The notes beneath the pieces are model-generated. The model was given only the letters and a program-made list of their open reading frames with translations, was not told the origin of the DNA and did no database searches. The translations under genes and the position numbers were made by a program. A DNA stretch of 64,000 bases, from contig CM075993.1 of NCBI GenBank assembly GCA_038087875.1, positions 5,272,001 through 5,336,000 on the forward strand, read 5' to 3'. Source of the stretch: Malacoraja senta. Taxonomy: Eukaryota. Within the stretch, counting starts at the first letter, position 1; each line of letters begins with the position of its first letter. Shown here piece after piece: positions 9,038 to 54,299 of this stretch.

Positions 9038-9237
9038 NNNNNNNNNNNNNNNNNNNNNNNNNNNNNNNNNNNNNNNNNNNNNNNNNNNNNNNNNNNNNNN
9101 NNNNNNNNNNNNNNNNNNNNNNNNNNNNNNNNNNNNNNNNNNNNNNNNNNNNNNNNNNNNNNNNNNNNNNNNNNNNNNNNNNNNNNNNNNNNNNNNNNNN
9201 NNNNNNNNNNNNNNNNNNNNNNNNNNNNNNNNNNNNN
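9038..9237. other. Assembly gap (200 N)
   Basis: Run of N. Confidence 1.
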
Positions 9238-9384: not shown

Positions 9385-9665
9385 AAGTTGGAGATATGCA
9401 GAGTACTGCCCTGTCGACTACAAAATTCAGAAGGTTCAGAAAGATGCTGGAAAATCTAAGGTAGACAAAAATGCTGGAGAAACTCAGCGGGTGAGGCAGC
9501 ATCTCAACCCGAAACGTTGCCTATTTCCTTCGTTCCATAGATGCTGCCTCACCCGCTGAGTTTCTCCAGCATTTTTGTCTACCTTAGATTTTCCAGCATC
9601 CTTCTGAACCTTCTGAATTTTGTAGTCGGCCGGGCAGTACTCTGCATATCGCCAACTTGGACAAA
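9379..9665. repeat. Foldback of ~125-bp arms (PLE repeat plus ~57 bp of non-PLE sequence)
   Basis: 9379-9506 is the reverse complement of 9538-9665 with few mismatches. Confidence 0.9.
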
Positions 9666-13095: not shown

Positions 13096-13280
13096 GTTCA
13101 AGAATGAACTGCAGATGCTGGAAAATCGAAGGTAGACAAAAGTGCTGGAGAAACTCAGCGGGTGAGGCAGCATCTATGGAGCGAAGGAAATAGGCAACGT
13201 TTCGGCCCGAAACGTTGCCTATTTCCTTCGCTCCATAGATGCTGCCTCACCCGCTGAGTTTCTCCAGCATTTTGTCTACT
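13096..13280. mobile_element. PLE-derived foldback insertion
   Basis: Near-perfect palindrome centred at ~13205; direct repeat TTGAAATTAAT at 13085-13095 and 13281-13291. Confidence 0.8.
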
Positions 13281-14645: not shown

Positions 14646-14727
14646 TTATGTGCTTATTCTTCTTATCGAGTCCACACACAAGATTAGAAGTTGTTCAGCC
14701 AGAGCTGAACACACCTTTCGGCATCTG

Positions 14728-15106
14728 ACAATAGACAATAGATAATAGGTGCAGGAGTAGGCCATTCGGCCCTTCGAGCCAGCACCGCCATTCAATGTGA
14801 TCATGGCTGATCATCCCCAGTCAGTACCCCGTTCCTGCCTTCTCCCTATATCCCCTGACTCCGCTATTTTTAAGAGCCCTATCTAGCTCTCTCTTGAAAG
14901 CATCCACAGAACCCGCCTCCACCGCCCTCTGAGGCAGAGAATTCCACAGACTCACCACTCTCTGGGAGAAAACGTGTTTCCTCGTGTCCGTTCTAAATGG
15001 CTTACTCCTTATTCTTAAACTGTGTGGCCCCTGGTTCTGGACTCCCCCAACATCGGGAACATGTTTCCTGCCTCTAGCGTGTCCAAACCCTTAACAATCT
15101 TATACA
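14728..15106 (-). mobile_element. CR1 LINE 3' end nested in the ribozyme-headed element
   Basis: YKIVKGLDTLEAGNMFPMLGESRTRG; (ATTGTCT)n tail; ATCTG duplicated on both sides. Confidence 0.9.
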
Positions 15107-15152
15107 ATCTGCATACAATGGTGTCTGTCTTGTGCTTTTCGTGCGTGGTGGT

Positions 15153-15205
15153 GGAAAGATTGGCGGAAACAGGGCCGCGACGTGAACGCTCTTTCCTTGA
15201 CCCCC
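15153..15205 (-). ncRNA. HDV-family (CPEB3-like) self-cleaving ribozyme, compact P4-less form
   Basis: GGGGGUC AA GGAAAGA GCG UUCACGU CGC GGCCCU GU UUCCG CCAA UCUUUCC: P1, P2 (7 bp), P3, L3 and J4/2 in HDV order. Confidence 0.8.
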
Positions 15206-33069: not shown

Positions 33070-33822
33070 GGAATAGATAGGGTGAATACACAGAGTCTTC
33101 TTTACGCAGGGTATGAGAATCAGGAACCAGAGGGCACAGGTTTAAGGTGAGAGAAAGATTTAATAGGAACCTGAAGGGCAACTGTTTCACTCGGAGGGTG
33201 GTGGGTATATGGAACGAGCTGCCAGAGAAGGTAGTTGAGGCAGGGACTATAACCACATTTAAAATACATTTGGACAGGTACATGGATAGGAAAGGTTTAG
33301 GGGGATAAGGGCCAAACGTGGGCAGGTTGGTTAGTGTAGATGGGGCATCTTGGTAGGCATGGGCAAGTTGGGCCAAAGGGCCTGTTTCCACACTGTCTGA
33401 CTCTATAACTCGTCCATACCAACTGGTCCCACTCGCATGCTTCTGACCCATATTGCTCCAAACCTTTCCTATACATGTATCAGTCGAAGTGTCTATTAAA
33501 TGTTGTAACTGGCAGATTCCATATACCTATCATTCTCTGTGTGAAAAAGTTCCCTCTCAGCTCCCACCTGAATCTTCCCCCTCTCAGCTTAAACCTATGC
33601 CCTCCAATTTTAGACTCACCTACACTGGTGGAACGACTGTGGATGTTCACCTCATCTATGCCCCCCCCTCATGATTTTATATACCTCTATAAGGCCACCC
33701 CTCAACCTCCAGGGAAAAGGTCCCAGTAACATCTGACCCAAATGCAGCACCTCACGGTTATCTGAATTAAACTCCATCTGCCGTTCCTCGGCCCACTGGC
33801 CTAATTGATCAAGGCCTTGTAA
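33070..33822. mobile_element. Two HER1-like CR1 3' fragments in tail-to-tail orientation
   Basis: + copy 33070-33410 ending GGGCCTGTTTCCACACTG; reverse copy ~33410-33822. Confidence 0.75.
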
Positions 33823-33885
33823 TCATAAATTATCTTCTTCACTGTCCTCCATACTATGGATTTTAGAGTCAACTGCAAACATGCT

Positions 33886-34062
33886 TCTTCTTCTTGTCGA
33901 GTTCACACACAAGACCAGAGGTTGTTCAGCCAGAGCTGTACACACTTCTCGGCAGCTGCGTACAATGGTGTCTGTCTTGCGCTTCTTGTGCTTCTTGTGT
34001 GTGGTGGTGGAAAGATTGGTGGAAGCAGGGCCGCGACGTGAACGCTCTTTCCTTGACCCCCC
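33886..34062 (-). mobile_element. Short (AAG)n-tailed retroelement with HDV-like ribozyme head, copy 2 (uninterrupted, ~177 nt)
   Basis: TSD CAAACATGCT (33876-33885) / CAGACATGCT (34063-34072); starts at G-run, ends ACAAGAAGAAGA. Confidence 0.85.
34009..34061 (-). ncRNA. HDV-family (CPEB3-like) ribozyme, copy 2
   Basis: GGGGGUC AA GGAAAGA GCG UUCACGU CGC GGCCCU GC UUCCA CCAA UCUUUCC; all helices identical to copy 1. Confidence 0.75.
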
Positions 34063-34825
34063 CAGACATGCTAATATTTGGACAGGTACCTGGATAGGAA
34101 AGGTTGAGAAGAATATAGTCGGCAGAGACAAGTTGGGCCAAAGGGCCTGTTTCGTGATGTATGATTCCACGACTCTATGCCATGTACATCCACGTCCAGA
34201 TCATATATTATAAATAATGAACAACTGTGGACCCAGCACTGATTCCTGAGGCACACCATTTTGGATAGCATTATATCAGCAAATGAAAATCCTTCTGACA
34301 GTTGAGGGGACATGTCATGCACCAGGGACTGAGGCACCTGGAAATGTGTACACAATCGCTCGGTCTACAACTGTTTGTGTCTTTGGACAAACAGTTGTAC
34401 CACTTGTGTCGTTTTTTTTTTTTTTGCCGTATGTTTTTTAATATTCGAAGATTGAGCAGAAATAAATGGAGTGAGCTCTTGACCATGGAGGGGGAGGCGA
34501 TGTTGCAAGAACTAAGTCCATTAGAACCATTCCCGACAATTTGCAGCGAGTGGATTTGAAGAAGGGTCTCGACCCGAAAACGTCACCCATTCCTTCCCTC
34601 CAGAGACGCTGCCTGTCCCGCTGAGTTACTCCAGCTTTTTGTGTCTATCTTCGGTTTAAACCAGCATCTGCAGTTCCTTCTTGCACAAGTGGATTTGACT
34701 GTTTACTGCAAACAATAGGCAGCTGGAGGAACTCAATGGGTCTAAGGCCGCATCTAAGTTTGGTTTTTGTTTGTCATCGCCACATGTACCGAGGTACAGT
34801 GAAAAGCTTTGCTTTGCATGCTGTC

Positions 34826-35025: not shown

Positions 35026-35769
35026 GAATTATGAGAGGCATAAATAGGGTAGACAGTCAGAGCCTTTTCCCCCCAGGGTGGGAAATGCCCAAACTAGAGG
35101 GCGTAGCATTAAGACCAGAAGGGGGAGGTTTAAAGGAGATGTGTGGGGCAGGTATGTTATAATACAGTGGTGGGTGCCTGGAACTCGCTGCCAGGGTGGT
35201 GGTGGAGGCAGGATAATGGTGTGTAAGAAGAGGCTTTTAGATGGGTTGAGGATAATATGTATGTGGGAATTTGGGATATGGATGGGGTGGCAGGCAGTGG
35301 AGGTTGGTTTAAACAGGCACCTTGTTCAGCACGGACATAGTGGGCCGAAGGGCCAGTTCCTGTGTTGTGCTATTCCACGTCCTCCGTTCAAGAACGGGTA
35401 AAGTGCTGGCTGTGTCCCCCACCCCCCCCTCTCCCCCCTAGAAGAAAGCACAAGTGGTTCAAAGGGTAACCAGCGGACAATGCCAGTGGGTCCAGAGCCA
35501 GCCGCCGGCTCTGGCAGTGAAGAGCGAGGAGGGGGGGATGGGGCAGAAGGCGGAAGTACGGGCAATCTCAGGGAAGTGGGTGCACGTCCCCCCCCCCTTC
35601 CCCCCCCCCCCAACTTGAAGCCCCCAGTCGGTGCAGAGATAAAGATGCTAATTCCATCAGACAGACCAGCCGCGCGCTCCCTTCCCCAGTCACGTGGATG
35701 CTATTCCTGGCAGCTCCTCGAGAAAGATTCTTCAGCAGCACCTTGCTAAATATAGCTTGCTGCAATTTA

Positions 35770-36930
<1,161 letters not shown>

Positions 36931-37209
36931 AGTGCCCGGTCTGGAGTATGGAGCCTCTACCCTGCAATGGCTGCTCTCTCTCCTTCTCTGGGCAGGGTAT
37001 CACCCCTACATCTACACGGACTGGTTCGACCTGTGCCCATCTATGCGAAGGAATAGGTGACGGTTCGGGTGGAGACCCTTCCTCAGTTTCTCCAGCAATT
37101 TAGTCTACATAAGATCGTAAGCGATGGGAGTAAAAGTAGGCCATTCGGCCCATCGAGGACTACTCCGCCATTCAATCGGGGCTGATCCATCTCTTCGGCC
37201 CACCGATTT

Positions 37210-53600: not shown

Positions 53601-54299
53601 ACTGAAGGAGATGGGGGAGACATCAAACTGGTCAACCATCAGTCTGCCAGTGAGCAACCCTGCCCCAATTGATCCGGACTCCCTGGGCTCCCCTCTCCAT
53701 CCCGGTGCGGCCTCCTGCTCTTCCCACCCTCCCTGGGCCTGGCTGGAGCTGGAGCTGGAGCCTGGCCTTGGCGAAGACGTGACCTTGAATCACCTCCCCC
53801 GGTTCGCATTGAGCGCTAGGCCGCAGCCTAACTGTGACCCTGGTGGCGAGACTCCAGCCACATTCCCCCACTGCACCGCAGCTCATTAATACAAAGCTTT
53901 TAAAAATCAAAATGAAATTTAAAAAATCGCCTTGTTTTCTTTGGAGATTCTATCTGTATAATTAACATTCTTGAGTGGAGAGAGCAGAAGGCCTTGGCTG
54001 CTGAGTTGAAGGTGTGTGCGCTCTCTGGTCGAAGGTAGACGCAAAATGCTGGAGTAACTCAGCGGGACCCGCTGAGTTACTCCAGCATTTTGTGTCTACC
54101 TTCGATTTTAAACCAGCGCCTGCAGTTCTTTCCGACGCATTTTGCGCACTTCTGGTTGGCAGGAAACTCGTGCCCCTTCACCCCACCCTGTCACCACGCC
54201 AGTGGTTTAGACAAGGTCGTAGCCCAGTCGTCGTTTCAACCATCCACAGGCACGGTCTCTTACAATGCCATGTACGACAGCGATCGCAACTTCCCACTG

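Follow-up and report, generated by a model that had tools for sequence, protein, structure and literature searches.

A CPEB3-like, P4-less HDV-family ribozyme motif at the 5′ end of a short retroelement in Malacoraja senta

Does a motif of 52 nucleotides (nt) in the genome of the cartilaginous fish Malacoraja senta represent a self-cleaving ribozyme of the hepatitis delta virus (HDV) family, and what would such a ribozyme do at the head of a repeated element? The motif lies on the minus strand of a stretch of 64,000 nt (contig CM075993.1 of GenBank assembly GCA_038087875.1, positions 5,272,001 to 5,336,000), hereafter the window, in which positions are numbered from 1. An earlier note, made from the letters alone, had taken it to be related to the mammalian CPEB3 ribozyme and to stand at the start of a short retroelement, with a bearing on a retrotransposon origin of that ribozyme. 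The analysis presented here supports the view that the flagged stretch is the ribozyme head of a non-autonomous retroelement of ~163 nt without long terminal repeats (non-LTR), which we call family A. With a probability of roughly 0.8, an active minimal HDV-family ribozyme would cut family A from read-through transcripts and so set its 5′ end.

The motif in the window

Read directly, the minus strand at window positions 15153-15205 is GGGGGUCAAGGAAAGAGCGUUCACGUCGCGGCCCUGUUUCCGCCAAUCUUUCC, within which the P4-less CPEB3-type motif (copy 1) occupies the 52 nt from 15153 to 15204. Helix P1 joins GGGGUC (15199-15204) to GGCCCU (15171-15176), positions 1-6 with 29-34; it has 6 base pairs (bp), the first of them the G.U pair G1.U34, and G1 is 15204. 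J1/2 (15197-15198) leads into P2, GGAAAGA/UCUUUCC, with 7 bp (15190-15196 and 15153-15159; positions 9-15 with 46-52). The 3-bp P3, GCG/CGC (15187-15189 and 15177-15179; positions 16-18 with 26-28), closes the loop L3, UUCACGU (15180-15186). P1 is followed by GU (J1/4, 15169-15170). The P4 helix is absent, and a 5-nt linker stands in its place (15164-15168; UUCCG here, UUCCA in other copies). The junction J4/2, CCAA (15160-15163), holds the candidate catalytic C ahead of the 3′ strand of P2. The order P1-P2-P3-L3-P3′-P1′-(P4)-J4/2-P2′ is that of a nested double pseudoknot, and its columns align with those of P4-bearing relatives from the same genome. The predicted cut lies between 15205 and 15204. 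The sequence, helices, L3, J1/4, J4/2 and pseudoknot order are all present as the earlier note had written them, with a small amendment to the coordinates: P1 begins at 15204, the G at 15205 being an extra base outside the element.

At the level of sequence, the window copies appear to have every feature of an HDV-like ribozyme save P4. J4/2 consists of a C and then adenines before the 3′ strand of P2, and a G at +1 forms the first base of P1, in a G.U pair in the window copy, in a G-C pair in the subfamily A2 and in a G.U pair in family B (both described below). L3 and the GU that follows P1 are identical to the CPEB3 consensus, and on this identity the weak helix P1.1 is predicted as well. 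For CPEB3, P1.1 has been modelled as two pairs, one G-C and one U-U (bioRxiv 10.1101/2022.09.22.508989).

When 271 nt with copy 1 were compared by cmscan with 4,227 Rfam families (E<=10), CPEB3_ribozyme (RF00622) was the sole ribozyme model matched, with 31.6 bits and an E-value of 7.6e-7, and no other HDV-family model responded. The earlier note had proposed this comparison with the CPEB3 and HDV models; its outcome is a CPEB3 match below the gathering score of 35 bits and silence from the HDV-family models otherwise. The alignment also bears out two details of that note, namely that the core is one C away from the G-form of the CPEB3 core and that P2 has been re-paired. A second copy in the window (copy 2) scored 28.5 bits. 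There was no Rfam match in the window at gathering thresholds, and a permissive scan of the whole window returned these two CPEB3-type copies and no further ribozyme. The 22-nt core was found twice in the window with up to three mismatches, both times on the minus strand, at 15169-15190 and, with one mismatch, at 34025-34046, while 100 shuffles gave a chance expectation of 0.00. The label CPEB3-like is borne out by RF00622 being the only Rfam ribozyme model to match and by P4-bearing relatives in the genome that reach 38-64 bits against the cut-off of 35.

The family A element and its 5′ boundary

Pairwise BLAST of copies, together with a duplication script, delineated family A as a non-coding unit of ~163 nt with an (AAG)n tail and target-site duplications of 9-13 bp. 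The 52-nt ribozyme is followed by an A/C-rich stretch of ~45 nt and by a 3′ module that contains the hairpin GUUCAGC/GCUGAAC and ends in GGACUCGAUAAG(AAG)n; this module folds with -22.3 kcal/mol (z -2.97). Aligned with other copies, copy 1 (L001) matches them in two parts, positions 1-98 and 478-547. Its 5′ piece (element positions 1-98) lies at 15107..15204 and its 3′ piece (positions ~94-163), with the hairpin and the end GGACUCGAUAAGAAGAA, at 14657..14727, both on the minus strand. Between them, a later insertion of 379 nt (14728..15106, minus strand) has brought in another repeat, which has a tail resembling (CTATTGT)n and a flanking 5-bp duplication, CAGAT. This repeat is a member of family D5 of the window repeat list, a family with five copies in the window. 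Copy 2 is uninterrupted and occupies the 177 nt at 33884..34060 of the minus strand, including an extra CACAAGAAG repeat unit. Its ribozyme spans 34009-34060 with G1 at 34060, and three extra G stand at 34061-34063; the copy ends in (AAG)n and is flanked by the repeat AGCATGT(C/T)T.

The genome searched comprised 1.94 Gb in 6,182 contigs. A 127-nt query around the motif yielded 540 candidates, and among the 40 that were scored, the 39 non-self copies were 91-97% identical to it. The homologous part starts between query positions 5 and 15, in most cases at 12-14; in the loci that were retrieved, the copies have unrelated sequence upstream, and homology sets in at GGGGTC. The 37-nt ribozyme core has 1,847 genome matches at up to two mismatches and the 34-nt 3′ end has 1,924, with no match for the reversed-pattern control in either case. 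Since the two numbers are so close, most copies, indeed nearly all, are taken to be full length and ribozyme-bearing. ARAGORN found no tRNA in family A, and the Rfam matches included no head of the RNA polymerase III (Pol III) type, be it tRNA, 7SL or 5S. Because no such head was matched, family A is not a canonical short interspersed nuclear element (SINE). It does have the marks of a non-autonomous non-LTR element: it is short and non-coding, it is flanked by duplications, and its (AAG)n tail is common to two long interspersed nuclear elements (LINEs) of the same genome, LINE B and a second LINE. The short retroelement of the earlier note is thus seen in these ~163-nt copies with their tails and duplications, and its 5′ end in a homology that begins at the first G of P1.

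To locate the 5′ boundary, the duplication script was applied to 33 family A copies, of which 29 were used and four without a recognisable 3′ end were set aside; a direct repeat was counted if it had at least 9 nt with at most one mismatch. Such a flanking repeat was present in 20 of the 29 copies, the remaining nine lacking a convincing one. The upstream repeat copy ended directly before G1 in 11 cases, 1 nt before it in five and 2 nt before it in four. The duplications of A2 are likewise flush with GGGGTC (L051, L059, L060), and copies of LINE family B start at the G1 of a 7-bp P1, with the duplication abutting G1 in L061 and L064. In addition, four public runs, filed under two coded organism labels, supplied contigs that were aligned to copy 2, an approach that reports the DNA boundary only, as contigs cannot show RNA ends. 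In each of the four runs, 169-316 contigs matched up to 34060, the G1 of copy 2, and were dissimilar beyond it (agreement 0.37-0.39). Families that differ in their P1 helix therefore all have the 5′ boundary of their DNA at the predicted scissile bond.

Family A occurs at high copy under both organism labels (runs X1/X5 and X2/X6), and its 5′ boundary is identical in the two. Fragments resembling LINE reverse transcriptases surround copy 2, which is flanked by other high-copy repeats (34065-34157 and 33662-33816), whose summed contig depth is very high in all four runs. Elsewhere in the window, the stretch 35710-37000 contains over 1 kb of microsatellite made up of (GA)n, (GGGA)n and (GATA)n, and a run of N at about 9215-9237, an assembly gap, falls inside a copy of repeat family D16. 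Hairpin repeats that are perfect palindromes were found at 944-1036, 13153-13259, 9477-9566 and 54045-54089. They gave sub-threshold matches to many microRNA models on both strands, and look like remnants of inverted-repeat transposons, not microRNA genes.

Relatives in the same genome

A genome search with RF00622 listed 60 matches from 59 scored candidates; 39 of the 60 reached the cut-off, the best with 64.2 bits, and the listed matches sort into five groups, A to E. Group A includes A2, an older subfamily of the P4-less family in which the P1 strand GGCCCCU turns the first pair into G-C. The family B ribozyme, with 57-64 bits, has P1 GGGGAUC/GAUCCCU, P2 GGUAGAA/UUCUACC, an 8-bp P4 and a CGAA J4/2, and constitutes the first 76 nt of a LINE. 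This LINE family B (L061-L065 on G000 C1, C5 and C7; also G000:C4:35486633-35489512 and C8:934632-937511) is 3.15 kb long, and its copies are 97-98% alike. It has a single frame for an apurinic/apyrimidinic endonuclease and a reverse transcriptase (APE+RT), a 3′ untranslated region of ~30 nt and the end ...GACACGAAAAG(AAG)n. One natural copy holds an open frame of 940 residues with RVT_1 (E 3e-32) and Exo_endo_phos domains, and uninterrupted frames of about 1,010 amino acids (aa) occur in two places. Size and layout (3.15 kb, one APE+RT frame) would suit an RTE-type element, and homologues with 50-63% identity are present on contigs of ~3.1-3.3 kb from many animals. At up to three mismatches, the genome contains 13 ribozyme-bearing 5′ ends of LINE B, so that family A copies are ~140 times as numerous (1,847 vs 13). 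At L041 (G000:C8:936115-939198), tandem partial repeats of P2-P3-L3, the 5′ half of the ribozyme, stand ahead of a complete family B ribozyme and may be the trace of template jumping at the 5′ junction.

Family C (L035, L039, L043) has a compensated P3, GCA/UGC, and CUAA as J4/2. Families D (L045, L048, L054, L056) and E (L042, L044, L046, L052, L055) are old and of low copy number; a 36-mer of family E has four genome matches at up to three mismatches, from which we conclude that this family is old and rare. Copies of D, and likewise those of E, share only ~95-115 nt with one another, consisting of the ribozyme and a further 25-40 nt with an ACCAC-rich tail. Family E is close to the mammalian CPEB3 consensus over its whole length, including the P4 stem CAGAUUCU/GAAUCUG, and has P2 GCAGGA/UCCUGC where the consensus has GCAGAA/UUCUGC.

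The relatives were then used to assess whether the helices are maintained. Of 56 extracted ribozyme segments 41 were aligned, near-identical family A copies and two truncated ones having been dropped, and pairs were counted for the pseudoknotted structure with 500 shuffles and slid partners as controls. Pairing was found in 90.9% of 856 cells, compared with 81.8±0.8% in the shuffles, none of which reached this value, and 38.6-51.8% with slid partners. Cells changed on both sides numbered 104, as against 43.3±6.0 in the shuffles (again reached by 0 of 500) and 5-12 with slid partners. A double change was seen in 15 of 25 pairs, four of them in P2 and seven in P4, a total that 41 of the 500 shuffles attained. 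Between family A and the P4-bearing relatives three P2 pairs differ, and each is compensated. Judged by this alignment, P1-P4 appear to stay paired across the five families through compensatory changes; the earlier note had made its reading depend on P1 and P2 pairing being kept across relatives in the genome, and in these 41 sequences it is.

Within J4/2 the first C is conserved at 90% or more and the two A are invariant or conserved at 90% or more, while the second position varies between G, C and U in the alignment and is A in a metagenome relative. Such conservation would be expected of a catalytic C with structural adenines behind it. The corresponding CPEB3 residue, C57 at the start of J4/2, is described as catalytic (bioRxiv 10.1101/2022.09.22.508989).

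Which enzyme might copy family A? LINE B shares the ribozyme type and the tail with it, not the body. A second LINE with APE and RT (L072/L073, G000:C4794:29050-32900), ~50% identical to P0002 and with an open frame of 986 aa, has a 12-bp target-site duplication and ends in GGACTCGAAGAAG, the terminal motif of family A. Its similarity to family A is confined to the terminal GGACTCGA..AAGAAG, and its 5′ region gave no Rfam ribozyme match at E<=1. On the basis of these sequences we regard it as a candidate partner for family A.

Proposed activity and origin, and known systems

We propose the following course of events. Family A, in which no promoter of its own is seen, would most likely be transcribed within longer host or neighbouring transcripts. 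The first 52 nt would then fold, with a 6-bp P1, a 7-bp P2, a 3-bp P3 carrying UUCACGU, a weak P1.1, no P4 and a C-C-A-A J4/2, and this fold, to judge from its form and from the element boundaries, would cut the RNA directly 5′ of G1. The released RNA would retain the entire ribozyme. A LINE reverse transcriptase would recognise the structured 3′ module and the (AAG)n tail and copy the RNA by target-primed reverse transcription, a step suggested by the duplications, by the tail and by the presence in the genome of LINEs with which this tail is shared. Each new copy would hence carry the ribozyme and begin at G1. Loss of P4 is tolerated in minimal HDV-like ribozymes, according to PMC10879173; as P4 is non-essential in the class, the P4-less form is compatible with activity. 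By analogy, the G-C first pair of A2 appears compatible with activity too, since in human CPEB3 a variant at the cleavage site, which we take to be U-to-C, is the faster one. This faster variant is described in PMC10919898.

Several observations weigh against an active ribozyme that sets the 5′ end. Both window copies fall short of the RF00622 cut-off (31.6 and 28.5 vs 35 bits), owing to the missing P4, for which the cmscan alignment has 7 bases at 21 positions; it is also unusual for a P1 of 6 bp to occur where P4 is absent. When the 52-nt motif was folded with nested pairs only, by a method that cannot model pseudoknots and hence says little about this fold, z was +0.60 and P1 was not recovered. 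The count of further pair types in the covariation analysis, 32 vs 35.6 in the shuffles (reached by 496 of 500), does not support the fold, and the 41 sequences stem from about five related families and so represent few independent events. The family A copies are young and near-identical and carry no information on selection after the loss of P4. As to the partner, the body of family A has no similarity to LINE B beyond a match of 14 nt, and its alignment with the second LINE, with a score of 36 vs 21.4±4.3 and a maximum of 41 in shuffles, is not significant. Furthermore, transcription that always starts at one site could, in principle, likewise give a constant 5′ end. This last point forms part of the alternative that the ribozyme is a relic, inherited by family A from a ribozyme-bearing LINE and inactive since P4 was lost, the constant 5′ end marking the transcription start of a few master copies. 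Such a relic would account for the absent P4, the P1 of only 6 bp, the score under the Rfam cut-off and copies too alike to reveal purifying selection, but it leaves unexplained why the boundary lies exactly at the predicted cut in A with its 6-bp P1, in A2 with its G-C first pair and in B with its 7-bp P1, and why all three P2 pairs that differ from the P4-bearing relatives are compensated. Moreover, ARAGORN and Rfam revealed no tRNA-like head that could act as a Pol III promoter, and HDV-like ribozymes without P4 do exist (PMC10879173); we therefore hold a relic to be quite improbable. That the motif arose by chance, or is some other sort of structured RNA, is next to inconceivable, because nothing beyond the sub-threshold Rfam score speaks for it, whereas the shuffles predict 0 occurrences, 1,847 copies were counted in the genome and none with the control, and covariation backs the fold. 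On the shuffles (0.00), the copy count and the covariation, a chance match was rejected.

The putative ribozyme at the head of family A raises the further question of how it relates to the ribozyme of mammals. The evidence supports placing the family A ribozyme, by its sequence, in the same lineage as the mammalian CPEB3 ribozyme. Alternatively, the likeness might reflect convergence within the HDV fold instead of common descent, considering that this fold fixes some positions and that the Rfam model was built from closely similar mammalian sequences. Identity nevertheless extends to positions that the fold does not fix, among them those in L3, in the J1/2 region, in P2 (GCAGGA/UCCUGC, and GCAGAA/UUCUGC in a metagenome relative) and in the P4 stem of family E; the whole class has only six invariant nucleotides according to a review (PMC8256844) that cites Webb et al. 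2009, and no other HDV-family model matched. Convergence is in our judgement unlikely. That so similar a motif heads a mobile element with ~1,800 copies suggests that the mammalian CPEB3 ribozyme derives from such an element. We lean slightly towards the view that the intronic ribozyme is an exapted insertion from this retroelement lineage. Exaptation would mean that CPEB3-type ribozymes predate mammals and moved as 5′ heads of RTE-like LINEs and their tiny derivatives, a picture to which we give marginally better than even odds; elements of the D/E type, with their ~95-115 nt, could deliver a bare ribozyme into an intron. The retrotransposon origin at which the earlier note had hinted is strengthened by the 3.15-kb APE+RT LINE with the P4-bearing form and by an old family that is nearly identical to the mammalian consensus, P4 included.

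Relatives were also sought outside this genome. A pattern scan of JGI metagenomes gave seven matches, and two distinct AT-rich, eukaryote-like loci, each present in two records (L076/L078 and L074/L079), contain ribozymes of the CPEB3 type whose sequence is not the mammalian one. One of these ribozymes scores 66.5 bits and has P2 GCAGAA/UUCUGC, a longer P4 and CAAA as J4/2; the other, with 51-52 bits, resembles family D, and an ACCAC tail comes after it. The remaining three matches were GC-rich and bacterial-looking, two without an Rfam match and one with a weak match of 25 bits, and a scan of viral contigs gave no match. The metagenome ribozymes imply that the lineage is not confined to this genome. 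For mammals, Bendixsen et al. refer to earlier work in which the CPEB3 gene was the only place where an HDV-like ribozyme was found.

If this picture holds, the origin of the CPEB3 ribozyme, and with it the old idea of a link to HDV, becomes testable by ordinary comparative genomics, and, should the intronic ribozyme be such an insertion, the present sequences would supply the missing outgroup for its evolution. They would also provide natural covariation data for a ribozyme that is almost invariant in mammals, as well as a natural minimal version, with a 6-bp P1 and no P4, for enzymology. For the host, thousands of potential self-cleavage sites would be spread across its transcription units.

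With the mammalian CPEB3 ribozyme (RF00622), the motif shares the P3/L3 core GCG-UUCACGU-CGC, the GU after P1, a C-N-A-A J4/2 and the double-pseudoknot order, and the genome relatives with 38-64 bits share P4 and P2 sequences as well. The window form departs from that ribozyme in the absence of P4, in its P1 of 6 bp, in a P2 of different but compensated sequence and in a score below the cut-off. Moreover, whereas the CPEB3 ribozyme occupies one conserved locus, in the second intron of CPEB3, family A is dispersed as a repeat with 1,847 matches and with duplications. Being under the RF00622 cut-off and not an intronic single-copy locus, the window copies are not "the CPEB3 ribozyme" itself. In the literature searched, we found no account of a CPEB3-type ribozyme from outside mammals, from fish or from a retroelement, although the primary papers on HDV-like ribozymes may mention some, and the phrase "CPEB3-like ribozyme" had 0 occurrences.

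It is established that R2, RTE, Baggins and L1Tc elements can begin with an HDV-like ribozyme (Eickbush 2010, Ruminski 2011 and Sanchez-Luque 2011, as summarised in PMC6765202 and PMC8256844), and LINE B fits their pattern, with the ribozyme as first module and the start at the predicted cut site. In the summaries of those elements, further shared features are the lack of an own promoter and processing from co-transcripts, which for the present elements we infer; the CPEB3 sequence type and the high copy number set the present ribozymes apart from what these summaries describe. Non-autonomous elements and SINEs that bear ribozymes are likewise known, examples of the former being NARTc of Trypanosoma cruzi and the R2 SIDEs of Drosophila (PMC3383444, PMC3414825). 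As these sources portray them, they resemble family A in being short and non-coding with a LINE-type 5′ ribozyme and 3′ end, and differ from it in that the body of family A is dissimilar to the ribozyme-bearing LINE and P4 has been lost. Minimal P4-less HDV-like ribozymes are known as the drz-Mtgn type and the theta ribozymes (PMC10879173), which, like the window form, have a short linker for P4 and keep P1, P1.1, P2, P3 and J4/2. By the account given there, they come from metagenomes and phages and are linked to tRNAs, whereas the window form, whose core is of the CPEB3 type, stands at the head of a eukaryotic retroelement. Systems of this kind are thus known; what differs is the CPEB3 sequence type and a P4-less form with a 6-bp P1 on a eukaryotic retroelement, in ~1,850 copies.
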